From Gemmatimonadales bacterium (GTDB lineage Bacteria; Gemmatimonadota; Gemmatimonadetes; Gemmatimonadales; GWC2-71-9), in the NCBI GenBank assembly GCA_035693225.1, contig DASSGV010000009.1:16527-80526 (forward strand): a stretch of DNA of 64,000 bases, read 5' to 3'. This document shows, one piece after another, positions 4,176 through 22,467 of the stretch; within the stretch, counting starts at the first letter, position 1, and each line of letters opens with the position of its first letter. The notes under the pieces were generated by a model. The model saw only the letters and a program-made list of their open reading frames with translations. It had not been told where the DNA came from and did not search any database. The position numbers were made by a program, and so were the translations under genes.

Positions 4176-4183
4176 CCGCTCCC

Positions 4184-5194
4184 GTGCCCGACATCCGGCG
4201 GTTCAGTGTCACCACCGCGGCGAGCGACCGGCTCGACCGCTTCCTTGCCGATCAGCTCGACCTCTCCCGGACCCAGGCCGCGCGGCTGGTGGCCCAGGGT
4301 GCCGTCACGGTCAACGGATCTCCGTCCCGCGCCTCCCGACTCCTGGGCCGCGGCGACGCGGTCGAGGTCACCTACCCCGAACTCGAACCGCCCCGCACCC
4401 TCCGCCCCGCGGACATCCCGCTGACCGTCGTCTACGAGGACGATGACCTGGCGGTCATCGACAAACCCGCCGGCCTGGTGGTGCATCCGGCCCCGGGCCA
4501 CTGGGACGATACGCTGGTCAACGCGCTGGTGGCACGCGGCACCACGCTCTCCGGCGGTGCGGCGGGACGGCCGGGGATCGTGCATCGGCTCGACCGCGAC
4601 ACCTCCGGTCTGATGGTGGTCGCCAAGACCGATCTGGCCCATCGCAAGCTCGGTGCGGCACTCGCCGCCCGGCGGATCACCCGCCATTACGCGGCACTCG
4701 CCTGGGGCCACCTCGATGCCAGCCCCACCGTGATCGAGGCTTCGATCGCCCGCAGTCCCAAGGATCGGACCCGGATGTCGGTCCAGGCCGGTGGGCGCGC
4801 GGCGCGGACCGACGCCTGGGTCATCGCGCGCTTCGGTGAGACCGAGCTCCTGCGCCTGGAACTCCACAGCGGACGCACCCACCAGATCCGGGTGCACCTC
4901 GACCACATCGGTCACCCGATCGTGGGAGACCCGGTGTATGCCGGGGGCGGCAGCCGCCGGATCGGCGGCCCCGCCCGCCAACGTGCCGAGGCGGTGGAGC
5001 GGGCGACGCCACGCCAGGCGTTGCACGCCGCGTTCCTGTCGTTCCGCCACCCGGCGTCCGGAGCGGTGGTGGAGTTCCGTTCCGAGTGGCCCGAAGATCT
5101 CCGCCGCGCCCTCCGATCCGCCGCCGGCACGGGGCCGGAAGTTGCTGATCCCCTTGGTCTTGGGTATCTTGGCTTCTTCAAGGAAAATGGCTGA
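4184..5194 (+). CDS. rluD: RluA/RluD-family 23S rRNA pseudouridine synthase
   Basis: S4-like N-terminus (RLDRFLADQLDLSRTQAARLV). Catalytic motif HRLDRDTSGLMVVAKT. GRTHQIRVH motif. Start placed at GTG 4184 just after the lspA stop; the ORF track starts earlier at 4097, so the start is uncertain. Confidence 0.9.
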   Translation: MPDIRRFSVTTAASDRLDRFLADQLDLSRTQAARLVAQGAVTVNGSPSRASRLLGRGDAVEVTYPELEPPRTLRPADIPLTVVYEDDDLAVIDKPAGLVVHPAPGHWDDTLVNALVARGTTLSGGAAGRPGIVHRLDRDTSGLMVVAKTDLAHRKLGAALAARRITRHYAALAWGHLDASPTVIEASIARSPKDRTRMSVQAGGRAARTDAWVIARFGETELLRLELHSGRTHQIRVHLDHIGHPIVGDPVYAGGGSRRIGGPARQRAEAVERATPRQALHAAFLSFRHPASGAVVEFRSEWPEDLRRALRSAAGTGPEVADPLGLGYLGFFKENG

Positions 5195-5621
5195 TCTGAC
5201 CTCCGTCCGGCTCCTGGTCTTCCGGGTTGGTGACCTCACCTGCGCCGTGCCGGTGGAGGCCGCCCGGGAGATCGTACCCCTCGAGGCCGCGACACGGATC
5301 CCGGGAGCGGCATCGGCGGTGCACGGACTGGTCAACGTCCGGGGCACCCTGCTGACGGTGGTGGATGGGCAGCGGCTGCTGGGACGTACGTCGGTCGATC
5401 CGCCCCGATCGGTGCTGGTCCTCGACAGCGGGGCGCGCGTGGTGGGACTCGCGGTGGACGAGGTGCGCGACCTGATCACCGTGCCGGCGTCGGAGTTGCA
5501 GGACCGCGAGGCGTTGCCGGGGCTCGATCCCACCCTGGTCCGCGCGGTGGGCCGGAATGACGGACAGCTGTTCGTGGTCCTCGATACCGATGCATTGCTG
5601 GCGCCGGTGATGGGAGTGTGA
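5187..5621 (+). CDS. cheW: CheW-like coupling protein (CheW-1)
   Basis: ATG 5187 within ORF frame 4791-5621 (MADLTSVRLLVFRVGDLTCAVPVEAAREIV...GLVNVRGTLLTVVDG...VGLAVDEVRDL). Typical single CheW-domain pattern. 8-nt overlap with the rluD stop. Confidence 0.85.
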   Translation: MADLTSVRLLVFRVGDLTCAVPVEAAREIVPLEAATRIPGAASAVHGLVNVRGTLLTVVDGQRLLGRTSVDPPRSVLVLDSGARVVGLAVDEVRDLITVPASELQDREALPGLDPTLVRAVGRNDGQLFVVLDTDALLAPVMGV

Positions 5622-5703
5622 CTCCCGCGCGCGCCGGCCGATCCAGCACCACTCCGGGCGTCCCCTGCGGCGCCGGCGAACCCCACGGTCGGGAGGAGGG
5701 CCA

Positions 5704-6066
5704 GTGAGCCACACGGTACTCGTCTGCGACGACGCCATCTTCATGCGGACGATGATCAGCGACATCCTGTCCCAGGCGGGGTTCGAGGTCGTCGGCGAGG
5801 CCGAGACCGGCCGCCAGGCGGTCGACCGATATTTCCAGCTCAAGCCCGACCTGGTCACGATGGACATCGTGATGCCGGACATGGGTGGCATCGACGCGGT
5901 ACGCGAGATCTGCAAGACCGACCCCGATGCCAAGATCCTGATGTGCAGCGCGATGGGCCAGCAGGCACTCGTCGTGGAGGCCATCCAGGCCGGCGCCAAG
6001 GACTTCGTGGTCAAGCCGTTCCAGCCTTCCCGAGTGCTCGAGGCCGTTCAGCGCGTCCTGGGCTGA
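5704..6066 (+). CDS. cheY: CheY-like single-domain response regulator
   Basis: 120 aa. Acidic pocket VCDDA. Phospho-acceptor context LVTMDIVMPDMGG. Conserved S (MCSAMG) and K (VVKPF). GGAGG-like RBS upstream. GTG start. Confidence 0.92.
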   Translation: MSHTVLVCDDAIFMRTMISDILSQAGFEVVGEAETGRQAVDRYFQLKPDLVTMDIVMPDMGGIDAVREICKTDPDAKILMCSAMGQQALVVEAIQAGAKDFVVKPFQPSRVLEAVQRVLG

Positions 6067-6069
6067 TCC

Positions 6070-7965
6070 ATGGACGCGTCGAAGTACACCGCCCTCTTTC
6101 TCGCCGAGAGCCGCGAGCACCTCAGCAGCTGCAACCAGTTGCTCCTCGAGTGGGAGCGCGATCCATCCGTCACCGGCGCCGTGGCGGGGCTCTTCCGGTC
6201 GGTCCATACCCTCAAGGGGATGGCGGCCACGATGGGGTTCGTCCGCCTGGCGGACCTGGCGCACCGGGCCGAAGACCTGCTCGATTCGATCCGCGCCGGA
6301 CGGCTGCAGGCCGATGGCGAGCTGATCGACCTGCTCTTCCGCACCGTCGACGGGCTGGAGAGCGGACTCGAGCCGGCGGCGGCGGGCCGGGATGGCCAGC
6401 TCGACTTCAACGAGTTGACCTCGGCGCTCGATGCGGCCGCGGGGGCCCCGGTGCCGGCGCCCCGCAAGGGTCGCCCCAAGGCGGAGGAGCGTGAGTCGGT
6501 CCCGGTCCGGTTGTCGGTGGCAGCACCGGTGCCGGGCACCGGTCGGGTGGTGAGGGTCAAGGTCGCTTCGGGTTCCGCGATGCCGGGTGTGCGGGCGATG
6601 CTGGCGCTCAAGCGGGCCGAGGCCCTCGGTTCCGTCGGCGGGGTGCAGCCGCCGGCCCAGCAGTTCGAGGGAGAGGCGTTCACCGGGGAGTTCAGCTTCC
6701 GGCTCGATGCGCCGTCGACCGACGCGGAGATCGAGGCCGCCCTGCGGGCCGCCGGAGAGATCGCCTCGGTCGAGATCACCGCAGCGGACGCCGAGGCCGC
6801 GGTCGCGGACCGGGATCAGGGGCGCAATCGTCACATCCGGGTCGATCTCCGCCGGCTCGACGCGCTGATGAACCAAGTGGGCGAGCTCGCCGTGACCCGG
6901 GGGCGGCTCCAGGAGCTGGTGGCGGGGCGCGGGATGCCGGAGGTCGAAGCACTTGCCACGCGGGTCGGGCGCCTGGTGGGCGAGATGCAGACCGAGATCA
7001 TCCAGGCACGGATGACGCCCGTCTGGCAGACCTTCGACCGGTTCCCGCGCGTGGTGCGCGACCTGGCACGGCAACTGGGCAAGCAGGTGCGGTTCGAGGT
7101 CGAGGGCGAGGGGATCGAGCTCGATCGCGCCATCCTCGATGAGATCGGCGATCCGCTCCTCCACCTGATCCGGAACGCCGTCGACCACGGACTGGAATCG
7201 CCGGCGGAGCGCAAGAAGGCCGGCAAGCCGGTCGAGGGACGGGTGACGCTCGCGGCGGCGCAGGCCCGCAACAGCGTCACGATCCGGGTGACCGACGACG
7301 GCCACGGGATCGACCGCGAGAAGCTGCTGGCCAAGGCCAGGCAGGAGGGGATCATCGATGCGTCGGTGGATCGGCTCACCGACGAGCAGATGCTCAAGGT
7401 GGTGGCGCGGGCCGGGTTCAGCACCGCGGCGGAGATCACCGACGTGTCGGGGCGGGGCGTCGGGATCGACGTGGTGGTGTCGCGGGTGCGGCAGCTGGGC
7501 GGCGTGGTGGAGGTCCAGTCGACGCTGGGGCAGGGGACGAGCTTCACCCTGCGGCTGCCGATGACGCTGGCGGTGGTGCGGGTGCTGCTGGCGCGGGTGG
7601 GGTCGGAGCGGTACGCGCTCCCGCTCACCCACGTGGCGGAGACGGTGGAGGTCACCGCGCAATCGCTGGCGGCGTCGCAGACGAAGGACGCGCTCATCCT
7701 CCGCGACCGCGTGGTCCCGATCCGCGACCTGCGGGAGCTCCTGTCGGTGGGCGGGGCCGCGCCGGCGCCCCCGCGGCGCCCGGGGATCGTGCTCGAGATC
7801 GGTGAGCGGCGCACCGCGGTGCTGGTCGATGCGCTGGTGGGACAGCAGGAGATCGTGGTCGAAACGTTCGAGGCGCCGCGGGGGACGCTCCCCGTCTTCA
7901 GCGGTGCCGCGATTCTCGGAGACGGTGCGCCGGCATTGATCCTTGATGCCGCCACGCTGGTGTGA
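6070..7965 (+). CDS. cheA: Chemotaxis histidine kinase CheA
   Basis: 631 aa. Hpt His in FRSVHTLKGMAATMGF. N-box HLIRNAVDHGLE. G1 DDGHGID. G2 SGRGVGIDVV. C-terminal CheW-like P5 domain. No receiver domain. Confidence 0.95.
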   Translation: MDASKYTALFLAESREHLSSCNQLLLEWERDPSVTGAVAGLFRSVHTLKGMAATMGFVRLADLAHRAEDLLDSIRAGRLQADGELIDLLFRTVDGLESGLEPAAAGRDGQLDFNELTSALDAAAGAPVPAPRKGRPKAEERESVPVRLSVAAPVPGTGRVVRVKVASGSAMPGVRAMLALKRAEALGSVGGVQPPAQQFEGEAFTGEFSFRLDAPSTDAEIEAALRAAGEIASVEITAADAEAAVADRDQGRNRHIRVDLRRLDALMNQVGELAVTRGRLQELVAGRGMPEVEALATRVGRLVGEMQTEIIQARMTPVWQTFDRFPRVVRDLARQLGKQVRFEVEGEGIELDRAILDEIGDPLLHLIRNAVDHGLESPAERKKAGKPVEGRVTLAAAQARNSVTIRVTDDGHGIDREKLLAKARQEGIIDASVDRLTDEQMLKVVARAGFSTAAEITDVSGRGVGIDVVVSRVRQLGGVVEVQSTLGQGTSFTLRLPMTLAVVRVLLARVGSERYALPLTHVAETVEVTAQSLAASQTKDALILRDRVVPIRDLRELLSVGGAAPAPPRRPGIVLEIGERRTAVLVDALVGQQEIVVETFEAPRGTLPVFSGAAILGDGAPALILDAATLV

Positions 7966-7973
7966 GGAGACCC

Positions 7974-8594
7974 ATGGACGACGTCCGCGACCTGCAGGCC
8001 CTGCAACTCGACGCGCTCCGCGAAGTGGCCAACATCGGCGCGGGCCACGCCGCCACGGCGCTGGGCCAGATGACCAACAGTCGCATCATGATCAGCGTGC
8101 CGCGGGTCACGGTGCTCCGCCTGGAGGAGGTCGCCGACCTCCTCGGTGCCGCCGACGAGCCCATCGCCGCGGTGATGATGCACATGCTGGGCGACCTGAC
8201 CGGCCGGACGCTGGTCATCTTCCCGGTGCCGTCCGCCAGGACGGTCTGCGATATCCTGCTCCGCCGGGCCCCCGGCACCACGACGGAGTTCGGCGAGATG
8301 GAGCAGTCCGGCATCAAGGAGGCCGGGAACATCCTGTCGAGCGCCTACATGACGGCGCTGAGCGATTTCATGGGGATGATGCTGTTGCCGTCGGTGCCGA
8401 GCCTGGTGATCGACCTCGCCGGCGCGGTGCTCACGACCGCGTACCTCAACTTCGGGCACGATCGCGACTACGTCTTCTGCGTGGAGACGGAATTCAAGTT
8501 CCTGGATTCGCCGATCCAGATCAAGGGACACTTCCTCCTGCTCCCTGACCTGGCCTCGCTGCGGGCCATCTTCGACGCCATCCGCCTGACGTGA
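7974..8594 (+). CDS. cheC: CheC/CheX/FliY-family CheY-P phosphatase
   Basis: Two copies of the D/S-x3-E-x2-N active-site motif (DALREVAN and SGIKEAGN). ATG 7974 is preferred because GAGGAG lies 5 nt upstream. An alternative GTG at 7962 would overlap the cheA stop. Confidence 0.85.
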   Translation: MDDVRDLQALQLDALREVANIGAGHAATALGQMTNSRIMISVPRVTVLRLEEVADLLGAADEPIAAVMMHMLGDLTGRTLVIFPVPSARTVCDILLRRAPGTTTEFGEMEQSGIKEAGNILSSAYMTALSDFMGMMLLPSVPSLVIDLAGAVLTTAYLNFGHDRDYVFCVETEFKFLDSPIQIKGHFLLLPDLASLRAIFDAIRLT

Positions 8595-8601
8595 GCGCGC
8601 C

Positions 8602-11310: not shown

Positions 11311-11313
11311 GCG

Positions 11314-12462
11314 ATGGCCATCGAGGGACCGCTCAAGGAGCTCGGGATCCACGATGTCTTCCAGCTGCTCGACCTCAGCCGGAAGACCGGCGTGCTGCGC
11401 GTGTCATCGGAACTGCGCCAGAACGCGGGCACCGTGGTCTTTGCCCAGGGCGCGGTGACGTCGGCGGAGATCCGGTCCAATCCGCACCCGCTCGGGTCGG
11501 TGCTCCTCGCCGCCGGGAAGATCACCCAGGAGGACCTCACCCGCGCCCGCGACATGCAGAAGGCCGGTGATCCCCGCCGCCTGGGCGAGGTGCTGGTCGA
11601 GATCGGCGCGGTCAGCCGGCGGGAACTGGCCCGGCAGGTCCGGGCCCAGGTCGAGGAAGTGGTCTTCGAGCTGATGAGCTGGTCCGAGGGCTACTTCTCG
11701 TTCGAGGAAGGGGTCGCGGCGGGGGTCGCGGAGGCCGATGTCCGGATCACCACCGAAGCGCTGATGATGGAGGGTGCGCGCCGGATCGACGAGTGGTCGC
11801 AGATCCAGCAGCGGATCCCCCATCTGGGGATCGTACCGCGGCTGGCGCCGGGGACCGGTGCCGAGGCCGGGACGATCGACCTGCTGCCGGAGGAGTGGGA
11901 GGTGCTGACCGCGATGGACGGAGAACGGGATGTCCGTTCGGTGGCGGAGGCGCTGGGTCGCTCTGAATTCGACGTGGCGAAGACCCTCTTCGGCCTGGCG
12001 AGCGCCGGGGTGATCATCCTGGACGCGCCGGCCACGGTGTCCGGTGCGGCGCCGAGCCGGGAGCTGGCCATCCTCATTGCCCGGACCGAGGATCGCCTCG
12101 CCAGCAACGATGCGCCGGCGGCACTCCTGGCTGCACAGGAGGTGGTGGCCTCCCATCCGCACGAGCCGATGGCCCATCTGGTGCTCGGGCGTGGCCTCCT
12201 GGCCGTCGGCCGGACCGCCGATGCCGCCGAATCGTTCCGTCGCACGTTACAATACGATGCCGGCTCGGCGACGGCGTATCGTCTCCTGGGGCTCAGCCTG
12301 CTCGCCAGCGGGCGGTTTTCCGAGGGTGCCGAGCAGCTCGACCGCTGGGCGGCGCTGCCCGACCTGCCGCCGGAGGAGCAGGAAGCGACGGAGCAGGTGG
12401 AACGGGCCCGCCAGGCCGCCCGGTCGCTCGATGACGCACTGCGCGGAAAGGGGAGCTCGTGA
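11314..12462 (+). CDS. PATAN (DUF4388) domain protein with MshEN/T2SSE_N-like helical motifs and C-terminal TPR
   Basis: N-terminus GPLKELGIHDVFQLLDLSRKTGVLRV...VVFAQGAVTSA is the typical DUF4388/PatA-N signature. Two LGxxLLxxGxI...L...Q motifs follow (residues about 59-112). C-terminal TPR-like helices. Confidence 0.75.
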   Translation: MAIEGPLKELGIHDVFQLLDLSRKTGVLRVSSELRQNAGTVVFAQGAVTSAEIRSNPHPLGSVLLAAGKITQEDLTRARDMQKAGDPRRLGEVLVEIGAVSRRELARQVRAQVEEVVFELMSWSEGYFSFEEGVAAGVAEADVRITTEALMMEGARRIDEWSQIQQRIPHLGIVPRLAPGTGAEAGTIDLLPEEWEVLTAMDGERDVRSVAEALGRSEFDVAKTLFGLASAGVIILDAPATVSGAAPSRELAILIARTEDRLASNDAPAALLAAQEVVASHPHEPMAHLVLGRGLLAVGRTADAAESFRRTLQYDAGSATAYRLLGLSLLASGRFSEGAEQLDRWAALPDLPPEEQEATEQVERARQAARSLDDALRGKGSS

Positions 12463-13292
12463 ACGACGACATTCGCGCGCTCACCGCCCAGCTGGCTGCG
12501 GACCCGGCGAGCCTGGTCTTCCTTCCCCTGGGCGAGGCGCTGCGCCGTCGCGGCCAGCACGACGTGGCGCAGAAAGTGGCGCTGGCCGGGTTGGGTCGGT
12601 ATCCGCACCTGCCCGATGCCCACGACCTCTTTGCCCGGATCCTGGTCGATCGGAAGGACTTCGAGCGGGCGTTCGACGAGTGGGACATGACGCTGCGCCT
12701 CGATCCCCAGCACGCCGGGGCGCTCAAGGGTTTGGGTTTCCTCTACTACAAGGCCGGCGATCTGCCGCGCGCCCGGGAGCTGCTGGAAGCGGCGCAGCTC
12801 GAGAGCCCCGACGATCCGAGCGTGGTCGCGGCGTTGGCCCGGGTGCGGGCGGAATCGGGATCGGCGCCCGAGGCCGCGTCCGCCGGAGCGCCACCCCTGG
12901 CGCCCTCCACCGAGGCCGATCCGGTCGCGGCCCCGGCATCGGTTTTTGCGGGACTGGAAGGGGCCGAGAATGGACTGCTGCTGGTGGACACCGCCGGCCT
13001 TCGGCTGGGTGGCGGGCTGCTGGATCCATCGGGCGCCGATGTGGCCGATGTCGTGGCGGCGCACCTGGCGGGCGTGTCCCGCGAGGCGCAGCGGACCGTC
13101 CGGCTCCTGGACCTGGGCACCTGGGAGGCGGTCATCGTCGAGGCGCCGAAGGGCAACGCGGCGGTGGTGCCGGCCAACTCGGAATCGCTGCTGCTCCTGA
13201 TGCGGGACGGGAGCGTGCCGCTGGGCCGGCTCCACGTCCTGGCCGACCGCGCCGCCAAGGCCGCCCGCCAGTGGATGGAAGGGATCGCGTGA
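12459..13292 (+). CDS. TPR + Roadblock/LC7-domain fusion protein
   Basis: 277 aa. N-terminal TPRs (PDAHDLFARILVDRKDFERAFDEWDMTLRLDP, AGALKGLGFLYYKAGDLPRARELL). A low-complexity linker. The C-terminal roughly 100 aa has a Roadblock pattern (GLLLVDTAGLRLGGG...DVVAAHLAGVSREAQRTVRLLDLGTWEAVIVEAPKGNAAVVP...LLLLMRDGSVPLGRL). GTGA overlap at both ends. Confidence 0.7.
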   Translation: MNDDIRALTAQLAADPASLVFLPLGEALRRRGQHDVAQKVALAGLGRYPHLPDAHDLFARILVDRKDFERAFDEWDMTLRLDPQHAGALKGLGFLYYKAGDLPRARELLEAAQLESPDDPSVVAALARVRAESGSAPEAASAGAPPLAPSTEADPVAAPASVFAGLEGAENGLLLVDTAGLRLGGGLLDPSGADVADVVAAHLAGVSREAQRTVRLLDLGTWEAVIVEAPKGNAAVVPANSESLLLLMRDGSVPLGRLHVLADRAAKAARQWMEGIA

Positions 13293-13636
13293 CCGCCTGG
13301 ACCGATGCGCTCGAACTCATCACCCGGGTCTCCGGGATCCGGGGCGCGATGGTCGTCTCCGCGATCGACGGGATGGTCGTGGCCGAGTCGCTGATGGACG
13401 AGCTCAAGGGGAGTGCCGTGGCCGCGTTGGCCGCGAGCCTGACGGGCAGGATCGGACGGGCGACCGACGGCGCCGGGCGGGGGGCTCCGCGATTCCTCCA
13501 GCTGCAGGCGACCGGGGGCACCCTGCTGGTGGCGCCCCACGGTCCGGACCTGCTGATCGTCGCGGTGGCCGAACGCACGGTCAATGCCGGACTCGCGCGG
13601 CTGGAGATGTTCCGGGCCGCGGAGCTGGTGCGCTGA
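13289..13636 (+). CDS. Roadblock/LC7-domain protein (MglB/MglC-like, 115 aa)
   Basis: GTG 13289 within frame 12044-13636. LELITRVSGIRGAMVVSAIDGMVVAESL...SAVAALAASLTGRI...LQLQATGGTLLVAP...LLIVAVAE is the classic alpha-beta-alpha-beta-beta Roadblock pattern. Confidence 0.75.
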   Translation: MTAWTDALELITRVSGIRGAMVVSAIDGMVVAESLMDELKGSAVAALAASLTGRIGRATDGAGRGAPRFLQLQATGGTLLVAPHGPDLLIVAVAERTVNAGLARLEMFRAAELVR

Positions 13637-14097
13637 TGCGCGCCGTCGAACCGTGGGTGGAGGGGCCGGTGGCGGCATTCCTCGCCGAGTCGGAGGCGCG
13701 GCTGGTGCTGCTGATGACCTCCTCCGGCCAGGTCGTGGCCCAGCACGGATTTGCCCGGGCGGTGGACGTGATGGGGGCCGCCGCGCTCGGCGCCGCGATC
13801 GTCGCCTCCACCGGGGAGATCGCCCGTACGCTCCAGTGGACCCCCTTCGGCGTGATGGTCCACCAGGGACCGGCACAATCACACTTCCTGGCCGCTTTCG
13901 AGACGCCGCGCGGCCGGTGGATCGCGCTGGTGGTGTTCGGGGGCGATACGTCGCTCGGCATCGTGCAGCTGTTCTTCGAACAATTGGTCAAGGATCTCGC
14001 CGCCGCGGTGCCCGCGGCCCCGCCGGCGCAGCCCGTGCTGGCGGAGAACTTCGAAAGCGAGCTCAATTCGAGCTTGCGATCGCTCTTCGGACGCTGA
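13636..14097 (+). CDS. mglB: MglB-type Roadblock/LC7 GTPase-activating protein
   Basis: 153 aa, immediately upstream of mglA as in Myxococcus mglBA. By eye it aligns block by block with M. xanthus MglB: [16 protein letters not shown] ~ VVFLVDKNGQLISSAG, and [26 protein letters not shown] ~ VLVVIFDNRTSLGLVRLRIKKASDEL. It has an acidic/amphipathic C-terminal tail. Confidence 0.8.
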
Positions 14098-14101
14098 CGC
14101 C

Positions 14102-14704
14102 ATGTCCCTCGTCAACTTCACGACCCGCGAGATCACCTGCAAGATCGTCTACTATGGCCCCGGACGATCGGGCAAGACGACGAACCTGCACTATATATAC
14201 GGTCGGGTGCCGGACACCCGGCGGGGGAAGATGGTCTCCCTCGCCACCCAGACGGACCGTACCCTGTTCTTCGACTTCCTCCCGCTGGAGCTGGGGCAGA
14301 TCTCCGGCTTCACGACGCGGTTCCAGCTCTACACCGTCCCGGGGCAGGTGTACTACAACGCGACCCGCAAGCTGGTGCTCCAGGGCGCCGACGGCGTGGT
14401 CTTCGTCGGCGACAGCCAGGGACGCCGTCTCGAGGACAACATCGAGAGCCTCCAGAACCTGCAGACGAACCTGCTGGAGCAGGGGATCGACGTGCGCCAG
14501 TTCCCCACGGTGTTCCAGTACAACAAGCAGGATCTTCCTCCGGAGCTCATTCTGAGCGCCGCCGAGCTGGATGACGCCCTCAATTTCCGTGGCGCGAAGA
14601 GCTTCCCGGCCGACGCGGTCCACGGCAGCGGCGTCTTCGAGACGCTCAAGGGCATCTCCGAGCTCGTCCTCAAGCGCCTGGCGCAGAATTCCCCCGTGGG
14701 ATGA
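14102..14704 (+). CDS. mglA: MglA-family Ras-like small GTPase
   Basis: 200 aa. Near-collinear with M. xanthus MglA from memory: [21 protein letters not shown] (P-loop), [12 protein letters not shown] (Arg-finger-equivalent region), [10 protein letters not shown] (catalytic Gln), QYNKQDLP (NKxD). Confidence 0.93.
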
Positions 14705-16674
14705 CCGACCAGCTCAACCCGCGGTTCCGCCTGGACAGCTACGTCGTCGGTGCGGCCAATCGGCTGGCCGTGACGGCGGCGCGCGCGGTGGCCGAGTCGC
14801 CGGCGACGGCCTACAACCCGCTCTTCATCTATGCCGGTCCCGGCCTCGGCAAGACCCACCTCCTGATGGCGATCGGCCACCAGGCCCGGACCATCGACCC
14901 GCAGCTCTCGGTCGAGTATGTGACCCTCGATGACTTCGTGGAGGCGTACAACGCCGCCATCGCGGCGGGCCAGGGTGATGCCTACCGGAAGCGCTACGCC
15001 GAGACGGGCGCCCTGCTGATCGACGACGTGCAGTTCCTGACCCACCGGCGCGAGGTGCAGGCGGAGCTCCTTCGGCTGGTCAACACGATGACGGCGGCGG
15101 GCCGTCAGATCGTGATGACGAGCGACCGCCCGCCGGCCGAGATCGAGGCGCTGGACGAGCGGCTGATCCAGCGCTTTGCCGGCGGGCTCGTCATCGACAT
15201 CGGCGCCCCCGATTTCGAGACCCGTGTCGCGATCCTCCGCCGGCAGTGTGACGACCGGGGTGTGGCGTTCGCTCCCGGCGTCATCGAGGTCGTGGCGGAG
15301 ATGGGGGCGGGGAACGTCCGGGAGCTGATCGGCGGGCTCAACCGCCTGGTCGCGGTCCAGTCGGTCAGCGATCGTCCGATCGACGCCGAGCGGGCGCGCG
15401 ACGCCCTCGGTGGCGGGCCCCGGTCGACGGCACCGACGGGGGCCGGGTCGGTCCCGGGGAATGACGCCGCACCCCCGGCACCGCTGGAGACGGCGGAGTT
15501 CGACGCCTTCCTGAGCGAAGTGACGGTGACGCTGTCGCAGCAGGTCGAGGCGTGGCGCGCGCGCGTGGGCGAGGCGATCCTGCGCTGGGAAGGGGAGGGA
15601 TATCGCACCGCGCGACTCACCGAACTCCTCGACCAGGAGGCGCCTCCCGATCCGGAGGCGACGCTCAAGAGTTTCGTCGCCGACGTCGAGCGGTTGCGGC
15701 GGTTGGAACGGGAGGCCGCCGAGCTGGATCCCGAGCTCGCCGGGGTCGCGGCGTTCCGCGATCCCGACGGGTTGGTGGCCGCCGAATCGCTCCTGGCCCG
15801 GGCCCGCTCCGGCGCCACGCCGCCGCCGGGACCTTCACCGTTGTGGCGGCTGGAGGAGTTCGCCGAAGGACCCTCCAACCAGGTCGCGGTGCGCGCCGCG
15901 GGGACGATCATCCACGAACCCGCGGTCAAGTACAATCCGCTCGTGATCGTCGCCGGCAGCGGGCTCGGCAAGACCCACCTGCTCCACGCCATCGGCAACC
16001 AGCTCGCCGCCGCACCGGAGTCCGTGGTGGCGTGCCTGGGTGCCCAGGACTTCACCGAGAACCTCATCGAGGCCATCGACCGTGATCGGGTGGCGCTCTG
16101 GCGGGCGCGGTATCGCCGGGTCACCGCGTTCCTGCTCGACGACGTGCAGCTCCTGGCCGGGCGCGACCGGAGCCAGGAGGAGCTCTTCTGGCTCTTCAAC
16201 CAGCTGGCGGAGCAGGGGCGCCAGATGGTCTTCTCGAGTGCGGTGGCGCCGCGCGACCTGGTGGGCATCGAGCCGCGGCTGGTGAGCCGGTTGGAGGGTG
16301 GCCTGGTGGTGACGCTCGAGCCTCCCGGGCGCGACCTCCGGCTGATGGTCGCCCGCCGTGAATTGGTCGAGCGGACCGGTGCGGCGGACGATGAGCTGGC
16401 GCAGTATCTCGCGGCGCGGCCGGCGGATTCGCCCCGGGCGGTCCTGGGCCTGGTGCAGCGCGTGCTGCAGGCGGCGGAGGCCCAGCAGCTCCCGCCGAGC
16501 GCGGGGCTGGCGCGCGAGCTGCTCGAAGGGGCCACCGAGCGCCCGGCGCGCAAGAGCGGCGGCCGGCGCTCCAGCGGGATCGTGGTCTCGGCCAGCGGCG
16601 GCGTGAAGAGCGTCGAGAAGATGGTCTGGGCGTGGCCCGACACCGCCGACCGCCTGATCGAGGATCTCCGCTGA
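14701..16674 (+). CDS. Protein with two tandem DnaA/Hda-type AAA+ modules and no DnaA domain IV
   Basis: 657 aa. Module 1: Walker A GPGLGKTH (14836-14856), Walker B LLIDDVQ, sensor [10 protein letters not shown], box [29 protein letters not shown], sensor [14 protein letters not shown]. Module 2: GSGLGKTH (15955-15975), [44 protein letters not shown]. The roughly 150-aa linker is helical/low-complexity. No C-terminal HTH DnaA-box-binding domain is recognisable. ATGA overlap with the mglA stop. Confidence 0.85.
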
Positions 16675-18299
16675 TGGCGATCAAGGGATCCCTGAAGGAG
16701 GCGAGCCTTCCCGACGTGCTGCAGCTCCTTTCCCTGGGGCGCAAGAGCGGCTGCCTGGCGGTCGCGGACCGCCAGAACTTCGGGTACATCTACTTCGACG
16801 AGGGACGGATCTGTTTCGCGTCGATCGTCAACCGTCGCGACCGGCTCGGCGACCTCCTGGTCAAGAACGGGCGGATCTCCCAGTCGCAGCTGCAGCAGGC
16901 CGTGGATCTCCAGGAGGAGCTCCGCGACCAGAAGCTCGGCGAGATCCTCGTCAACAGCGGCGCCATCAAGCGGATCGACCTGGAGGAGTACATCCGGCTC
17001 CAGATCGAGGAGGCGGTGTACTTCCTGTTCACCTGGGCCTCGGGGACCTTCAACTTCGAGGCGGGGGTCCGCCCCGACCGCCAGGACTTCCTCGTCAACA
17101 TCAATCCCGAGTCGCTCTTGCTCGAAGGGGCGCGCCGGGTGGACGAGTGGAGCCTGATCGAGAAGAAGATCCCGTCGTTCGACCTCATCTTTTCGCTCGA
17201 CCAGAAGCACCTGGAGGGCTCCCAGGTCAGCCTCTCGCCGGAGCAGGAGCGGTTGCTCCCGCTCCTCGACGGCCGCCACGACATCCACCAGCTCGTGGAG
17301 GACAGCGGCCTGGTGGAGTTCGAGGTCGGCAAGGCGCTCTACGGGTTCATCACCGCCGGGTTCGCCCATCGGGTGGGGAGTTCGACCGGGGCCGCGGAGC
17401 CCAGTGTCAGCGCCGCGCGGGTGGACGAACATCGCAACCTCGGCATCGCCTTCTACAAGACCGGGATGCTCGATGAGGCGCTGCGGGAGTTCCGCCGGGT
17501 GGCCGACCTCCGCCCCTCGGAGGCCAGCGCGCCCTTCTACGTCGGGCTGATCGCGCTCAAGCAGGCCAAGTGGTCCGAGGCCGTCGAATCGCTCCGCCTG
17601 GCGCTGGATCGGGGCGGGCCGCGGTCGGCGGCGCTCTACAACCTCGCCTTCGGCCTGGAGCGGATGGGCAAGCTGGACGACGCCGAGGCGACCTACGGCG
17701 AGGCGGTGACCCGGGCGCGCGACGACGCGCGGATCATGACCGGCTGGGCGATCGCGGCGCTCAAGCGGGGCGACGCCTCCGTCGCGTCGGGGCGGCTGCA
17801 GCGCGCCCGGGAATTGTGGGGCGCGAAAGCACCGCCGGCGATCTGGTACTGGGCCACGGCGCTTGCCCATGCGGTCGAATCCGACCTGGAACAGGCGATC
17901 CTGGTGGCCCAGGAGGGTGTGACGGCCTTTCCCACGCACGCGGTGCTCAAGAACAACCTGGCGGTGCTCCTGGAGCTGACCGGCGATGTCGCCGGCGCGG
18001 AGGCGGCCGTCCGCGAGGGGTTGAGCGAGGATCCCTCGGTGCCGCAGTTGTCGAAGAACCTGGGCGACCTGCTCTATCGGGCCGGCAAGTACGACGAGGC
18101 GGACGAGGCGTACCAGCGCGCGGCCAAGCTCGCCCCCGACCTCGGCGACGACCTCTACTTCAAGCTCGGGAACATCGCGTTCCGCCAGCGCGACACCGAT
18201 CGCGCGCGCGCCCAGTGGCAGCGGACCGTCGAGCTCAATCCCGATCACCAGCTGGCGCGGAGCAACCTGGAGTCGATGTCCTCCGAGGCCGCGGGATGA
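16674..18299 (+). CDS. PATAN (DUF4388) domain protein with MshEN/T2SSE_N-like motifs and C-terminal TPR (paralog of 11314-12462)
   Basis: ATG 16674 within frame 16632-18299. GSLKEASLPDVLQLLSLGRKSGCLAV...IYFDEGRICFA. RLGDLLVKNGRISQSQLQQAVDLQ + KLGEILVNSGAIKRIDLEEYIRLQ. The blocks WASGTFNFEAG and LLLEGARRVDEWSLIEKKIP mirror WSEGYFSFEEG and LMMEGARRIDEWSQIQQRIP in the paralog. At least 5 C-terminal TPRs. Confidence 0.78.
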   Translation: MAIKGSLKEASLPDVLQLLSLGRKSGCLAVADRQNFGYIYFDEGRICFASIVNRRDRLGDLLVKNGRISQSQLQQAVDLQEELRDQKLGEILVNSGAIKRIDLEEYIRLQIEEAVYFLFTWASGTFNFEAGVRPDRQDFLVNINPESLLLEGARRVDEWSLIEKKIPSFDLIFSLDQKHLEGSQVSLSPEQERLLPLLDGRHDIHQLVEDSGLVEFEVGKALYGFITAGFAHRVGSSTGAAEPSVSAARVDEHRNLGIAFYKTGMLDEALREFRRVADLRPSEASAPFYVGLIALKQAKWSEAVESLRLALDRGGPRSAALYNLAFGLERMGKLDDAEATYGEAVTRARDDARIMTGWAIAALKRGDASVASGRLQRARELWGAKAPPAIWYWATALAHAVESDLEQAILVAQEGVTAFPTHAVLKNNLAVLLELTGDVAGAEAAVREGLSEDPSVPQLSKNLGDLLYRAGKYDEADEAYQRAAKLAPDLGDDLYFKLGNIAFRQRDTDRARAQWQRTVELNPDHQLARSNLESMSSEAAG

Positions 18300-19120
18300 T
18301 CGAGGCCGGTGACGTCGACGGCTTCGCCGCGCTCACGCGGACGATCTCGACGACCGCCGGGCTCGCGCTCGAGGGGTACAAGGACAAGTGCCTCCGGCGC
18401 CGGATCGCGGTGCGGATGCGGGCGCGCGGCGTCCACACCTTTGCGGACTACGAGCGCCTGCTCGGTCAGGATCCCGGTGAGTACGAGAAGCTCACCGACG
18501 CGCTCACGATCAACGTCACCCGATTCTATCGGAACGCCGACACCTGGGGCCGCCTGACGCGTGACCTCCTGCCCGAGCTCTGGGCCGCCCGTCAGGGTGC
18601 GGTGCGGGTCTGGAGCGCGGGATGCTCGTCGGGAGAGGAGCCCTATACGATCGCGATGCTCCTGGCCGCGGAGGCGGAGCGGAGCGCCCGGCGGTCGTGG
18701 CTGGAGCGCGGCAGCATCGTGGCGACCGACATCGACAAGGTGTGCCTGGAGCGCGCCCGTGCCGCGCGGTACCCGGAGGCGGCCTTCTCGGAGACGCCTC
18801 CGGCGCTGACCGCCCGGTACACCGTCCCGGTGCCGTCCGGGCGGGAGATCGTCCCTGAGCTCCGCGCGCTGGTCGACTGCCGTCGGGCCGACCTGTTCCT
18901 CGACCCCGTACCGGGGCCGTCCTTCGACCTCATCACCTGTCGCAACGTGATCATCTATTTCGATCGTGGCAGTCAGGAGCAGCTCTTTTCCCGGTTCGCG
19001 GACGCGCTGGTGCCCGGGGGCCTCCTGGTGCTGGGCAAGGTGGAGACCCTCTTCGGGCCGGTGCGGGAGCGGCTCGAGCTCATCGACGTGCGCGAGCGGA
19101 TCTTCCGGAGGCCGGCGTGA
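18296..19120 (+). CDS. cheR: CheR chemoreceptor glutamate O-methyltransferase
   Basis: ATG 18296 within frame 17570-19120. N-terminal helical CheR domain (LRRRIAVRMRARGVHTFADY), TRFYRN, SAM-binding VWSAGCSSGEEPYTIAM, CRNVIIYFD. Confidence 0.9.
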   Translation: MIEAGDVDGFAALTRTISTTAGLALEGYKDKCLRRRIAVRMRARGVHTFADYERLLGQDPGEYEKLTDALTINVTRFYRNADTWGRLTRDLLPELWAARQGAVRVWSAGCSSGEEPYTIAMLLAAEAERSARRSWLERGSIVATDIDKVCLERARAARYPEAAFSETPPALTARYTVPVPSGREIVPELRALVDCRRADLFLDPVPGPSFDLITCRNVIIYFDRGSQEQLFSRFADALVPGGLLVLGKVETLFGPVRERLELIDVRERIFRRPA

Positions 19121-19611
19121 CCGGCCCTGACGCCGTCATCGTCAAGGTGGCTGAGCTCCGCGCCGGTGGGGCCGGCGCCGAACTCGTCACCCTCGGCCTG
19201 GGAAGTTGCGTCGCGATCATCCTCCACGATGCCGAGGCGCAGGTGGGCGGGATGGCGCACGTGATGCTCCCGTCGAAGTCCCTCTCGCATCGCGGTGCGG
19301 CGCAGGCGGCCAAGTTCCCCGAGACCGCGGTGCCGGCGCTGATCGAAGCGATGGCGGCGCTCGGCGCCCAACCCCGGCGGATGTCGGCGCGCCTGGTCGG
19401 AGGCGCCAGCATGTTCGCCGCGTTGACGCCCATGGGCGCGGTCCAGATGGGGGAGCGCAACGTGGTGGCCAGCCGCCAGGCGCTCGCGCTGGCGGGGATC
19501 CCGGTCGTGGGCGAGGCCACCGGTGGGACGGCGGGGCGGTCGGTGCGTCTCTTGGTGGCCGATGGGTCGGTCTCGATCCGGACGCTGGCCGATGGCATCC
19601 GCAAGCTCTGA
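19117..19611 (+). CDS. cheD: CheD chemoreceptor glutamine deamidase
   Basis: 164 aa. [14 protein letters not shown]...GGMAHVMLP (catalytic Cys/His context), [19 protein letters not shown] overlap with cheR. Confidence 0.88.
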
Positions 19612-20674
19612 CCTGCCGTCGGTCCTGGTGGTCGACGACAGTGCCCTGTTCCGTCGGGTGCTGACCGAGATCATCGACGCGACCGGCGAGTTCCGGGTGG
19701 CGGCCACCGCGCGCGACGGCCTGGACGCGCTGCGGAAGCTGCACAAGTACGTGCCGGACATCGTCACGATGGACCTGGAGATGCCCGAACTCGACGGGCT
19801 GGGCACCATCGGCTACATCATGTCCGAGTCGCCCCGGCCGATCGTCGTGGTGAGCGCGTACGCCGGAGCGGGGACCGCCGGCGCCATCCGCGCGCTCGAG
19901 CTCGGCGCCGTGGAGCTGGTGCCGAAGGAACTCGATCCGTCCACCGAGTCGATCCGACGGCTCGCCCCCAGGATCCTCGCGGCGCTTCGGGCGGCGCGGG
20001 CCGCGGACATCCATCGGGTGAGCCCGCTCGCGCGCCCCCCGCGGCCGGAGCCGCCCCGGTCGGCCGACGTCTTTGCCTTGCCGGGCCGGGCCCGCTGGTG
20101 CGTCGCGATCGCCGCATCGACCGGCGGGCCCCGGGCGTTGGCCGAGGTGGTCCCGGCGCTCAAGCCGGGGCAGGGGGCCGCGGCCCTCATCGTCCAGCAC
20201 ATGCCGCCAAAGTTCACGCGCTCCCTGGCGGAGCGGCTGGCCACCCAGAGCCGCATGACCGTGGTCGAGGCGGAGGATCAGGCGCCGGTGCTGGCCGATA
20301 CCGCGTACATCGCCCCGGGCGATTATCATATGCGGGTGACCGCCGGCGAGAACGGGATCCGGATCGTGCTGGGCCAGGACGCGGCACAGCACGGGGTCCG
20401 CCCCGCCGCCGATCCCCTGTTCGAGTCGGTGGCCCAGGTCTTCGGACGCCGCAGCGTGGGCGTGGTGCTCACCGGCCTCGGTCGCGATGGCGCCGCGGGG
20501 CTCAAGCAGATCCACGATGCCGGCGGGGTCGGCGTGGCACAGGATCGGGAGAGCGCCACGATCTATGGAATGCCCAAGGCCGCCTTCGAGTCGGGTGGGG
20601 CCGACGCCGTGCTCCCGCTGGACCGGATCGCCGGGCGCATCGGCGAGGAGCTCGAACGGATGAAGCGCGGATGA
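19592..20674 (+). CDS. cheB: CheB protein-glutamate methylesterase (REC + CheB_methylest)
   Basis: ATG 19592 ([22 protein letters not shown]...). REC Asp in [13 protein letters not shown]. Esterase motifs [36 protein letters not shown]. Overlaps cheD by 20 nt. Confidence 0.92.
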
Positions 20675-21117
20675 CCGCCACGGCGGTGCGCTACCTCGAG
20701 CTGACCGCCGGAGGCCGCCGCTACGGATTGCCGGTCTCCCAGGTGGTCGAAGTGGGCGAACCGGGCCCGGTGCTCGCGGCACCGACCCAGGCGCCGTCCC
20801 TCCGCGGCGTAAGCGAGGCGCGGGGCAGGCTCGTCCCGGTGCTGCACCTGGCCGCTTTCCTGGCCGGTGCGCCGTGCCCCTCCGAGCGGGGGACCGCCTT
20901 GGTGCTGGTTCGTTCCGGCGACGGCGCCGGAGACGGCCTGGTGGCGCTGGAAGTGGATGACGTCTTTGCGGTGGTGCGCGGGCCGGTGCTGCCGGCCGCC
21001 GAGCTGCCCTCGCTGCCCTGGGCCACCGGCCTGGCGCAGCGGGACGATGGGACCCTCCCGATCCTTGACCTCAGCACGCTTGCGGATCGACTCCGCGGCC
21101 TCGGAGTTCCGGCATGA
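20671..21117 (+). CDS. cheW: CheW-like coupling protein (CheW-2, divergent)
   Basis: ATG 20671 within frame 20098-21117. [21 protein letters not shown]...[17 protein letters not shown]...[14 protein letters not shown] fits the CheW-domain pattern. ATGA overlap with cheB. Confidence 0.75.
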
Positions 21118-21581
21118 CGACGACCGGCGATGAGATCCAGATCGTGACCTTCCGCGTCGGGACGCAGGAATTCGGCCTGAACGTGTTCCAGGTCGAGCGC
21201 ATCCTGCGCTACGAAGCGCCCTCCGCACTGCCGAAGGCGCCCGATTTCCTCGAGGGCGTGGTGCAGTTCGACGGCAGCGTCGTTCCCGTCGTCGACCTGC
21301 GCAAGCGGCTCACCCTTCCGGCGGAGCGGCAGGAGGACACCCGGCTGATGGTGCTGGATGTCGACGGCCAGCGGGTCGGGATCATCGTCGATCAGGTGCT
21401 CGACGTGCTGCGGGTGGACGGTGGTGCGGTCACGGCCCCGCCCCCGATCGTGCGCGGGCTCGCGGCCGAGTACATCAGCGGGCTCCTGGCGCAGGGTCCG
21501 CGCACCGTCGTCATCCTGAATGCCGGGCGCCTGTTGACATCCAAGGAACGGCTGGCACTCGCCAAGGTCGGCGCCGCCTGA
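21114..21581 (+). CDS. cheW: CheW coupling protein (CheW-3)
   Basis: 155 aa. IVTFRVGTQEFGLNVFQVERILRY...FLEGVVQFDGSVVPVVDLRKRL...VGIIVDQVLDVLRV. Confidence 0.88.
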   Translation: MTTTGDEIQIVTFRVGTQEFGLNVFQVERILRYEAPSALPKAPDFLEGVVQFDGSVVPVVDLRKRLTLPAERQEDTRLMVLDVDGQRVGIIVDQVLDVLRVDGGAVTAPPPIVRGLAAEYISGLLAQGPRTVVILNAGRLLTSKERLALAKVGAA

Positions 21582-21594
21582 CCGCCCCCATCCC

Positions 21595-22467
21595 ATGACC
21601 GACACCCTCATCGAACCACTCCGCGCCGAGTACCAGGCGATCGCTGCCCGCGTCGATGCCGTCACCGGCTTTGCCGAGCGGGAGGGGCTGAAGCGGGAGA
21701 TCATCGCGTTCTTCAAGCGGGTCGACGGCGCCCTCACCGACCTGACCCAGCTGAAGGAGGACATCCGGACGCTGGTGGAGAAGTACAAACAGGTGAGTGC
21801 GGCCTCCGACACCGCCCAGGCCCCCCAGTTCACCGGCGCGCGCCCGATCGTGCAGGTCGATCACATCGGTGCCTCGACCTTCATCGAGAAGGGGTGGAGC
21901 CTCATCTCCCTCGGCGATTACGCCGGGGCCATCCAGGCGCTGCAGAAGGCGCTGGCGCTCTCGCCCAACGAGGTGCAGGCGCAGTCGCTCCTGGGGTGGG
22001 CGCAGATGCTCCACGAGGAGTACGATGACGCCCTCGCCACCTTCTCCAAGGTGCTGATGAAGGAGCCGGCCAACTCGCTGGCCCGCATCAACGTCGGCTA
22101 CATCTGCCTGAAGAAGCGGATCTTCGGCGAGGCCATCGAGCACCTCTCCAAGGCCATCCGGCTGGACAACGACCGCAAGGCCACGCTGTACGCCCACTAC
22201 TACCTCGGCCTGGTGTACCTGGAGCGCGAGATGTTCGAGGACGCCCAGGTGTTCTTCCAGAAGACCCTCCAGCTCGGTCCCAATCTGATCGAGGCGTTCT
22301 ACGAACTGGGCCGGGCGCAATGGTTCGCCGGAGAACCCGACGCCGCCAAGCAGACCTGGACCGACGGGCACAAGGCCAACAAGTTCAATCCGTGGGGCAA
22401 ACGCTGCAAAGAGATGCTCGACCTGGTCGCCTCGGGAGGAGAGCCGCCGCGCTCACCGCCGGCCTGA
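21595..22467 (+). CDS. Coiled-coil + TPR-repeat protein (290 aa)
   Basis: N-terminal heptad-like region, then TPRs (GDYAGAIQALQKALALSPNE, YDDALATFSKVLMKEPAN, FGEAIEHLSKAIRLDND, FEDAQVFFQKTLQLGPN). Last gene of the che-mgl block. Confidence 0.8.
   Translation: MTDTLIEPLRAEYQAIAARVDAVTGFAEREGLKREIIAFFKRVDGALTDLTQLKEDIRTLVEKYKQVSAASDTAQAPQFTGARPIVQVDHIGASTFIEKGWSLISLGDYAGAIQALQKALALSPNEVQAQSLLGWAQMLHEEYDDALATFSKVLMKEPANSLARINVGYICLKKRIFGEAIEHLSKAIRLDNDRKATLYAHYYLGLVYLEREMFEDAQVFFQKTLQLGPNLIEAFYELGRAQWFAGEPDAAKQTWTDGHKANKFNPWGKRCKEMLDLVASGGEPPRSPPA

Follow-up and report, generated by a model that had tools for sequence, protein, structure and literature searches.

In Myxococcus, signalling through the Frz chemosensory pathway inverts the polarity axis that MglA, a small GTPase, forms with its partner MglB (PMC3441718). 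MglA-GTP in this organism recruits SgmX, a tetratricopeptide repeat (TPR) protein that in turn delivers PilB to the pilus machinery, and PATAN proteins are among the candidates of the co-occurrence screen in the SgmX paper (PMC11580455). Wiring from a chemosensory kinase to MglA is known, in part, only in Myxococcus, whose genes for it lie dispersed over the genome and include several adaptors confined to the lineage. Here we describe a row of 18 genes (numbered g01 to g18; positions 5187-22467, + strand) in a 64-kb stretch of Gemmatimonadales DNA, referred to as the window, from a host genome of 70% GC. The row joins a set of chemotaxis (Che) genes with mglA, an mglB-like gene, TPR and PATAN genes, and the gene of a tandem DnaA-type AAA+ ATPase (g11). 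From the gene context we read it, with a probability of roughly one half, as a polarity-control cluster of the Gemmatimonadales that is gated by chemosensory input, cyclic di-GMP (c-di-GMP) and ATP and probably serves type IV pili. The components, the idea that Che pathways act on MglA and the idea that PATAN domains act on pili are already known. What appears to be new, judged by sequence comparison, is the conserved physical union of MglA/MglB with a Che set that is F1-like, the obligate pairing of g11 with a PATAN gene, and a modular series across the phylum.

The initial annotation of the window had stated that frz and mglBA occupy separate loci in Myxococcus. This agrees with the survey of Wuichet & Sogaard-Andersen 2014, in which mglA is not near its partners in Myxococcus and Bdellovibrio (PMC4316618). 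The supplementary table of that survey lists only two MglA loci of G. aurantiaca, 'MglB>MglA>' (GAU_1115) and 'PATAN>MglA>-PATAN>' (GAU_1409) and mentions neither Che genes nor an ATPase (PMC4316618). PATAN genes near mglA/mglB were noted by Makarova 2006, as cited in the survey (PMC4316618). In cyanobacteria, Che-linked regulators of the PatA type have PATAN as their output domain, which binds to PilB1 and PilC (10.1101/2021.06.11.447907). A search of full-text literature found MglA and Gemmatimonadetes joined only in the 2014 survey, MglA and a DnaA-like protein joined in no paper, and DUF4388 (the PATAN domain) together with CheA only in cyanobacterial work. No description of the cluster was found in the searched literature, in keeping with the earlier remark that its composition had not been described.

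The Gemmatimonadales cluster has several features in common with the Frz-MglA system, namely a pathway of CheA/CheW/CheY type and an MglA GTPase accompanied by a protein of Roadblock fold, which is the GTPase-activating protein (GAP) in Myxococcus and a candidate for it in the block. Myxococcus has an extra Roadblock paralogue, MglC, where the block has g07 and g08, and a TPR effector logic (SgmX to PilB) is known there. The genes that Myxococcus keeps at separate loci are, however, interleaved in one row in Gemmatimonadales, and the block encodes no FrzCD-like receptor, FrzZ, FrzX, RomR or RomX. In contrast to Frz, its CheA has no receiver, CheC and CheD are present, and the Che core resembles that of Thermotoga; further additions are the DnaA-like ATPase and the PATAN-MshEN proteins. 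The cyanobacterial Tax/Pix systems (type IV pilus, or Tfp, class) resemble the block in the genetic coupling of Che genes to PATAN proteins. The block PATAN domains are fused to TPR and not to a receiver, which together with the separate CheY gives the look of a 'split PatA'; the block also has MglA/MglB and the tandem AAA+ protein, and its receptor lies outside the cluster.

The F1 operons of T. maritima and B. subtilis have CheA, CheW, CheY, CheC, CheD, CheR and CheB in common with the block. They differ from it in that the block has eight non-Che genes between cheC and cheR and three CheW genes, and in that MCP, CheV and flagellar genes are not adjacent in the block (MCP, methyl-accepting chemotaxis protein). 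In the actinobacterial conservons (CvnA-D), a single unit encodes a histidine kinase together with a Roadblock protein and a GTPase of the MglA family (PMC4316618), which is a precedent for hard-wired kinase-GTPase modules. A membrane sensor kinase takes the place of CheA/CheW in them, the GTPase is one of MglA group 2, and they have no PATAN, TPR or AAA+ partners.

The interleaved order is conserved. The full row from rluD (pseudouridine synthase) to a Peptidase_MA_2 gene, with the same overlapping junctions, was found in L001, L002, L006 and L086, the last a Gemmatimonadaceae metagenome-assembled genome (MAG). It runs rluD, cheW, cheY, cheA, cheC, TPR, PATAN, TPR-Roadblock, Roadblock, mglB-like, mglA, g11 and g12, followed by cheR, cheD, cheB, cheW, cheW, TPR and Peptidase_MA_2. 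Locus L003 has the identical order with one terminal cheW instead of two. When metagenomes were scanned with g11 relatives of greater divergence, the interleaved order was found again in L090, L092, L093, L095 and L098. Across the loci of conserved order the identity of g11 is about 36-60%. Whereas the initial annotation had left conservation in relatives to be checked, the whole interleaved order recurs in many Gemmatimonadales genomes. The rluD border is common to L001, L002, L086, L093, L099 and the Longimicrobiales loci L083-L085, and the Peptidase_MA_2 border is kept in all related loci, Longimicrobiales included.

The loci of conserved order come from independent assemblies of four sources (NCBI, JGI, ENA and Logan), and because these agree the cluster is a real, selected arrangement. 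Chance juxtaposition, or an artefact of assembly or annotation, found no support and has a negligible probability: it is refuted by the conserved synteny, and the coding-type GC content at third codon positions of all the open reading frames (ORFs) also speaks against it, even though the long co-directional run in which the block lies makes co-directionality weak evidence. The conserved interleaving is the strongest computational evidence for a functional linkage between the Che genes and the MglA/MglB module. For g11 there are more than 100 full-length relatives at at least 60% identity, and those with names are all Gemmatimonadota, the nearest being a Gemmatimonadales MAG (92% identity); an identical g11 occurs only on a Logan contig of 2.3 kb. 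The most divergent named g11 clades are Gemmatimonadota as well; the range beyond the phylum was not surveyed systematically, and absence elsewhere is not proven. A scan of a genome collection with a pattern from the second Walker A of g11 was swamped by genuine DnaA, and 5 of its 80 loci were family members.

The cluster is also modular. Three genomes of Longimicrobiales, one of them from Gaopeijia maritima, which is in culture, carry ylmE, divIVA, ileS, (lspA), rluD, g11, g12 and Peptidase_MA_2, and at this same rluD/Peptidase_MA_2 site L083-L085 have no Che, MglA/MglB or Roadblock gene. Within the Gemmatimonadales series, L099 keeps the kinase half (cheW to cheC), the Roadblock/Mgl genes, g11, g12 and the final TPR gene and is missing cheR, cheD, cheB and two cheW. 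L007 is without cheB and both terminal cheW, L093 without cheD and both terminal cheW, and L090 without the two terminal cheW. Despite these losses g18 is retained, directly 3' of g12 in L099 and 3' of cheD or cheB in L007, L090 and L093. The adjacency of g11 and g12 is found in every locus, Longimicrobiales included. There is thus a hierarchy of linkage: g11 with g12/PATAN is always present, the kinase half with the Mgl module comes next, and the adaptation half is facultative.

This hierarchy bears on how the locus is to be described. A Che pathway split by an MglA/MglB module, as first proposed, is a misleading picture, since the persistent core is g11 plus g12, which stand alone at the Longimicrobiales site. 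The proposal of a hard-wired machine gains partial support from the conserved linkage; a single indivisible machine it is not, the adaptation half being dispensable in L099, L007, L093 and L090. Because g11-g12 occur alone and the adaptation half can be lost, the cluster is better regarded as a modular assembly. The Che and Mgl genes may have been gained around an old g11-g12 pair, or they may have been lost from around it. Divergent g11 paralogues elsewhere are also near PATAN genes. In L087 the order is PATAN, an unknown gene, the g11-like gene and another unknown gene; in L088 it is REC-PATAN-REC (61-1380), a TPR-like protein, the g11-like gene, PAS and TPR. The L088 arrangement suggests further g11/PATAN systems with two-component inputs. 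The small proteins beside these divergent paralogues (241 aa in L087, 203 aa in L088) were considered as MglA candidates and are not MglA-like. In L084 the g11-g12-peptidase site is followed immediately downstream by a gas-vesicle cluster (GvpA, F, L, G, K; 14561-21974), which is encoded on the opposite strand.

Table 1. Genes of the cluster, its two borders and mapped domains and motifs; positions refer to the window.
Feature	Position	Strand	Evidence
rluD (pseudouridine synthase), left border	4097..5194	+	Pfam PseudoU_synth_2 + S4
g01 CheW-1	5187..5621	+	Pfam CheW 2.7e-29
g02 CheY, single-domain response regulator	5704..6066	+	Pfam Response_reg 3.1e-30
g03 CheA	6070..7965	+	Pfam Hpt, P2, dimerisation, HATPase, CheW
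g04 CheC-type CheY-P phosphatase (predicted)	7962..8594	+	Pfam CheC 3.2e-20, two stretches
g05 all-TPR protein, 902 aa	8602..11310	+	Pfam TPR families
g06 PATAN (DUF4388) + TPR	11314..12462	+	Pfam DUF4388 1.8e-31
MshEN-type tandem motif in g06 PATAN domain, residues 59-112	11488..11649	+	NCBIfam NF053729 39.3 bits, cut-off 38
g07 TPR + Roadblock/LC7	12459..13292	+	Pfam TPR_19 2.7e-9, Robl_LC7 3.4e-6
g08 stand-alone Roadblock/LC7	13289..13636	+	Pfam Robl_LC7 2.2e-10; PDB generic Roadblock 1.2e-5
g09 MglB-like Roadblock protein	13636..14097	+	PDB M. xanthus MglB 7.6e-8
g10 MglA small GTPase	14102..14704	+	PDB MglA 1.4e-72
g11 tandem DnaA-type AAA+, 657 aa	14701..16674	+	Pfam Bac_DnaA x2, 3.1e-95
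g11 N-module, DnaA domain III-like, residues 1-236	14701..15408	+	alignment, 68 sequences
g11 C-module, Hda-like AAA+, residues about 401-612	15901..16536	+	alignments; PDB Hda matches
g12 PATAN + TPR	16674..18299	+	Pfam DUF4388 3.3e-36
MshEN-type tandem motif in g12, residues 57-110	16842..17003	+	NCBIfam NF053729 46.6 bits, cut-off 38
g13 CheR methyltransferase	18296..19120	+	Pfam CheR 4.9e-49
g14 CheD	19117..19611	+	Pfam CheD 3.5e-26
g15 CheB (REC + methylesterase)	19592..20674	+	Pfam CheB_methylest 3.6e-64
g16 CheW-2	20671..21117	+	Pfam CheW 4.1e-18
g17 CheW-3	21114..21581	+	Pfam CheW 3.3e-32
g18 TPR protein, 290 aa	21595..22467	+	Pfam TPR
Peptidase_MA_2 gene, right border	22478..23351 (exact start codon uncertain)	+	Pfam Peptidase_MA_2 1.3e-9

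All 18 ORFs are present on the + strand without an internal stop (Table 1), and their GC content at third codon positions (GC3), 0.84-0.94, is in the range of real genes in a 70% GC genome. None of the 18 products has a transmembrane segment, and all are predicted to be soluble and cytoplasmic. The identities first given to these consecutive genes were borne out by Pfam and PDB searches. The entry '2xDnaA-like AAA+' stands as regards two Bac_DnaA ATPase domains and needs amending in that both lie within one 657-aa protein, g11.

The genes are tightly packed. The ten start/stop overlaps reported for the block are correct (4, 4, 1, 4, 1, 4, 4, 20, 4 and 4 nt), as are the remaining gaps of at most 13 nt (3, 7, 3, 4 and 13 nt) save the 82 nt 5' of cheY and the overlap of the rluD stop by the start of cheW-1 (8 nt). 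A possible eleventh overlap joins cheA and cheC (7965/7962) if cheC uses a GTG start; an ATG 12 nt downstream is the alternative. The gap before cheY is the only long one in the block, and cheY has a GGAGG Shine-Dalgarno sequence upstream. The + strand run is wider than the block: all 37 genes called in 98-42233 by a crude GC3 gene call are on this strand, so that co-directionality is weak evidence here and the tight junctions are the informative part. Tight packing already begins upstream, in ileS-dksA-lspA-rluD. A scan of 3000-22999 for consensus terminators and promoters returned none, which is uninformative for a 70% GC genome. From its junctions, a single transcript with translational coupling is plausible for the block.

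The Che proteins look like an ancient F1-type set, not a Frz- or pilus-type one, with best PDB matches and gene content taken as the proxy for class. The best PDB match of CheY is T. maritima CheY (1tmy, E 2.1e-51), followed by archaeal CheYs. CheA matches a full-length CheA (6s1k, 2e-88) and T. maritima CheA (1b3q, 2.7e-87), and its best NCBIfam model, the archaeal CheA_Halo, scores 477 bits, under the equivalog cut-off. Its domains are Hpt, P2, dimerisation, HATPase and CheW with no receiver, and CheC and CheD are encoded beside it, which is the domain and gene content of the F1 class. CheC and CheD are typical of this class, as in the Bacillus and Thermotoga systems. Receiver domains in the block are confined to CheY and CheB. 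The block contains no CheA-receiver fusion, MCP or dual-receiver protein of the kind that marks Frz-type (alternative cellular function, ACF) systems. To call the pathway complete, as the initial annotation did, was an overstatement: a six-frame scan of the 64-kb window for the MCP signalling-hairpin motif returned none, and no MCPsignal gene occurs among called genes with Pfam matches within 10 kb of L001, L002 and L086.

These affinities raise the alternative that an ordinary flagellar operon of F1 type shares its transcription unit with a module for polarity or pili to which it is unrelated. CheY-P would then act on the flagellar switch, and MglA, MglB, the Roadblock, PATAN and TPR proteins and g11 would act elsewhere, in pilus or pole organisation for example, and be co-located for co-expression with motility genes. 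Besides the nearness of CheY and CheA to Thermotoga and full-length flagellar proteins, the P2 domain and missing receiver of CheA, and the presence of CheC and CheD, this is favoured by the flagella encoded by G. groenlandica (PMC7844134), by g11-g12 standing alone in Longimicrobiales and by the separability of the adaptation half. A flagellar output for CheY is possible because the Che core is Thermotoga/F1-like and Gemmatimonas has flagellar genes. Against this alternative stand the Che genes, which flank the module on both sides through overlapping stop and start codons and form no contiguous cassette, the interleaving, which persists over large sequence divergence, and L099, where the kinase half is still joined to the Mgl genes after CheR, CheD, CheB and two CheW are gone. 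There is also no flagellar gene nearby. We regard this alternative as rather unlikely.

Within the polarity module that the Che genes enclose, the g10 product is 58% identical to M. xanthus MglA over 195 residues (phmmer E 1.4e-72) and matches T. thermophilus MglA as well (phmmer E 1.3e-66). It keeps the P-loop, TDRTLFF and YTVPGQ aligned to the M. xanthus MglA residues. The hallmarks of MglA are the Thr in switch-2 (TVPGQ vs DxxGQ) and the intrinsic arginine in TDRTLFF (PMC3000849, PMC3199381). By its sequence, g10 is a bona fide group-1-like MglA. The g09 protein has no Pfam Robl_LC7 match, is matched in the PDB by M. xanthus MglB (E 7.6e-8) and reaches 25 bits against the NCBIfam MglB (Thermus) equivalog, far under the cut-off of 200. 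Its gene ends 4 nt upstream of mglA in the tandem mglB-mglA arrangement, and this tandem is kept in all related Gemmatimonadales loci. g09 is a candidate MglA GAP. Two Roadblock proteins are additional to it, g07 (fused to TPR) and g08. The long TPR protein g05, conserved in related loci, may be a scaffold or an effector of MglA, which would liken it to SgmX in role only.

The two PATAN proteins, g06 and g12, score 109.1 and 124.4 bits against PF14332 (cut-off 25). Neither has a Response_reg match, so they are not of the PatA type (PATAN-REC); both are PATAN plus TPR. Each carries a tandem motif of the MshEN type within the PATAN domain, PLGSVLLAAGKITQEDLTRARDMQ / RLGEVLVEIGAVSRRELARQVRAQ in g06, where it is conserved in orthologues. 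The MshEN consensus is a tandem of the 24-residue RLGxx(L/V/I)(L/V/I)xxG(L/V/I)(L/V/I)xxxxLxxxLxxQ (PMC5013675), and both motifs of g06 and of g12 fit it in the form RLGxxLVxxGxIxxxxLxxxLxxQ. In both proteins the NCBIfam model of this c-di-GMP motif, NF053729, scores over its cut-off (Table 1). The deviations are a spacer of 6 residues in g06 and g12 vs 5 in MshE, and a P in place of R at the start of motif I of g06. Residues 51-112 of g12 match the PDB c-di-GMP-binding modules of Thermus PilF (6f8l, 1.2e-7), Vibrio MshE (5htl, 1.1e-5) and PilB (3.3e-4). The motif is kept in most orthologues, Longimicrobiales included, and g06 and g12 probably bind c-di-GMP through it. The tandem 24-residue motif is common to these proteins and to MshE, PilB and PilF; whereas it forms the N-terminus of those secretion ATPases, in g06 and g12 it is an insertion within the PATAN domain.

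The constant partner of g12 is the tandem ATPase g11, which starts at the first residues of DnaA domain III and has a further AAA+ module as its second half. In the PDB the N-module is matched by DnaA domain III at 7.6e-57; it is ~50% identical to that domain of B. subtilis DnaA, with all nucleotide-binding and arginine-finger motifs aligned. These motifs do not vary among 68 g11 sequences, the invariant residues being G48, G50, K51, D108, D109, S141-D142-R143, R154 and R207-E208. The C-module is Hda-like (PDB 2.6e-9) and keeps box VII-like arginines; its P-loop lysine is not invariant, and in Longimicrobiales the P-loop is degenerate and the lysine lost. The protein also has a helical linker and, at its C-terminus, a WxWP...E tail, both of them conserved. 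A confident AlphaFold model (pLDDT 87.8, pTM 0.79) has two AAA+ modules, a helical linker and two disordered stretches. Foldseek places its N-module on B. subtilis DnaA domain III (TM-score 0.93, rmsd 1.7 A) and returned no full-length analogue for the model.

g11 differs from both DnaA and Hda. DnaA and the N-module have in common the fold of domain III along with Walker A/B, sensor I/II and the arginines of box VII, while PF08299 (Bac_DnaA_C, domain IV) and PF11638 (domain I) gave no match in g11. Hda, the DnaA inactivator that the C-module resembles, is a single short AAA+ protein with an N-terminal clamp motif, whereas the C-module is the latter part of a fused protein of 657 aa; a reading of the sequence at its start showed no beta-clamp-binding motif like QL[SP]LPL. 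Unlike DnaA and Hda, g11 has its two modules in one chain and is encoded with signalling genes and not at an origin. With a DnaA-like ATPase fused to a donor of arginine fingers, g11 may be a switch that works on ATP by itself, or it may form oligomers that depend on ATP.

The kinship with DnaA invites a cell-cycle interpretation, in which the locus is a module for division or budding polarity. g11 and g12 would regulate replication initiation, polar growth or the choice of division site, and in Gemmatimonadales the Mgl and Che genes would feed environmental or polarity information into them. The surroundings fit such a role: the locus is always 3' of rluD, which in Longimicrobiales is preceded by ylmE-divIVA-ileS-(lspA), and in the window, L001, L002 and L099 it lies just upstream of rsmH and the division and cell wall (dcw) cluster. 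So do the ~50% identity of the N-module to DnaA domain III with its oligomerisation arginines intact, the Hda-like C-module, and the division of Gemmatimonas by both binary fission and budding (PMC7844134). Set against this are the lack of DnaA domains I and IV and of an obvious clamp-binding motif in g11, and a constant PATAN partner whose c-di-GMP motif of pilus-ATPase type points to pili rather than replication; the location beside division genes may be historical only. We consider a cell-cycle role improbable.

For the polarity-control reading, we infer the following course of events from the gene identities, packing, synteny, linkage hierarchy and motifs described above. Receptors encoded elsewhere would activate CheA through the CheW proteins. 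CheA would phosphorylate the single CheY, which CheC would dephosphorylate, and CheR, CheB and CheD, where present, would adapt the receptors. CheY-P would act on the TPR, PATAN and Roadblock proteins encoded between the Che halves and not, or not only, on a flagellar switch. These proteins may in turn set the nucleotide state or polar location of MglA, with the MglB-like g09 as its GAP and g07 and g08 as accessory Roadblock partners. Together with the 902-aa TPR protein and the PATAN domains, MglA-GTP would then position or activate machinery at the pole, which is most likely to be the motor that extends type IV pili. The MshEN-type inserts of g06 and g12 would provide a c-di-GMP input, and g11, paired with g12, could be an ATP-dependent oligomeric platform or timer.

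In favour of polarity control, L099 keeps the kinase half joined to the Mgl module despite loss of the adaptation half. Further points for it are the gene identities, the conserved interleaving with its overlaps, the similarity of MglA to the Myxococcus protein, the published parallels in Myxococcus and cyanobacteria, the MshEN-type inserts, the retained motifs and confident fold of g11, and the lack of transmembrane segments. Several points weigh against it. Each of its links is drawn by guilt by association. The nearest proteins to CheY and CheA are those of Thermotoga, which are of the F1, flagellar/archaellar type, and CheA has no receiver domain such as is typical of Frz-type or Tfp-type kinases. 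The block contains no MCP, RomR/RomX-like protein or extra receiver that could serve as adaptor, and pilus or flagellar genes are absent from the window and the flanks examined. Genomes of Gemmatimonas have flagellar as well as pilus genes (PMC7844134). Because g11-g12 exist without Che or Mgl genes in Longimicrobiales, part of the block has a Che-independent function. A more detailed version of the polarity-control reading can be proposed tentatively and is itself unlikely to be right in full. According to it, g11, derived from DnaA/Hda, was recruited from the replication-initiation toolkit into polarity signalling and forms with its PATAN-MshEN-TPR partner a platform gated by ATP and c-di-GMP; free CheY acts in trans, as in a 'split PatA', and the kinase is wired to MglA/MglB without adaptors of the RomR or FrzZ type.

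The arrangement suggests a direct wiring of chemosensing to cell polarity in the Gemmatimonadales, which are soil bacteria. One conserved row provides a short, defined list of proteins among which the missing link between kinase and MglA can be sought. The lineages without the adaptation half and those with the ATPase-PATAN pair only form a natural 'deletion series', and the ideas are testable, since cultured Gemmatimonas strains exist. Of wider interest are a DnaA-family ATPase that apparently acts outside replication and PATAN proteins that probably sense c-di-GMP via a pilus-ATPase-type motif.

The block sits between the lspA-rluD group (98-5194) and rsmH with the cell-wall and division cluster (25670-42233); the genes downstream of rsmH are presumed to form this cluster. 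Within it, 1.3 kb (32764-34105) contain no gene by the crude GC3 filter, where a gene was probably missed. An Rfam scan for RNA elements returned only two tRNAs, both downstream of the block: tRNA-Val(TAC) at 23573-23646 (+) and tRNA-Asp(GTC) at 25526-25601 (+), between the block and the dcw cluster. The mechanical ORF at 23326-23706, which overlaps with tRNA-Val, probably does not represent a gene. A reading of g11, g12, g06 and g05 as a defence system was dropped, the PADLOC matches being trivial only. Just 3' of the Peptidase_MA_2 gene lies a 63-aa ORF (23363-23554, +) with no family match on record; ORFs of matching size occupy the corresponding place in L001 (63 aa), L002 (63 aa), L086 (57 aa) and Longimicrobiales (66-67 aa). 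Upstream of the block, a DksA/TraR-type zinc-finger protein (3281-3664, +) is packed between ileS and lspA and is conserved in L099. Not adjacent to the cluster, the window also encodes a ComFB-domain protein of 94 aa (59512-59796, +; Pfam 1e-15); ComFB proteins are c-di-GMP/c-di-AMP receptors that affect motility and competence (PMC12448109).

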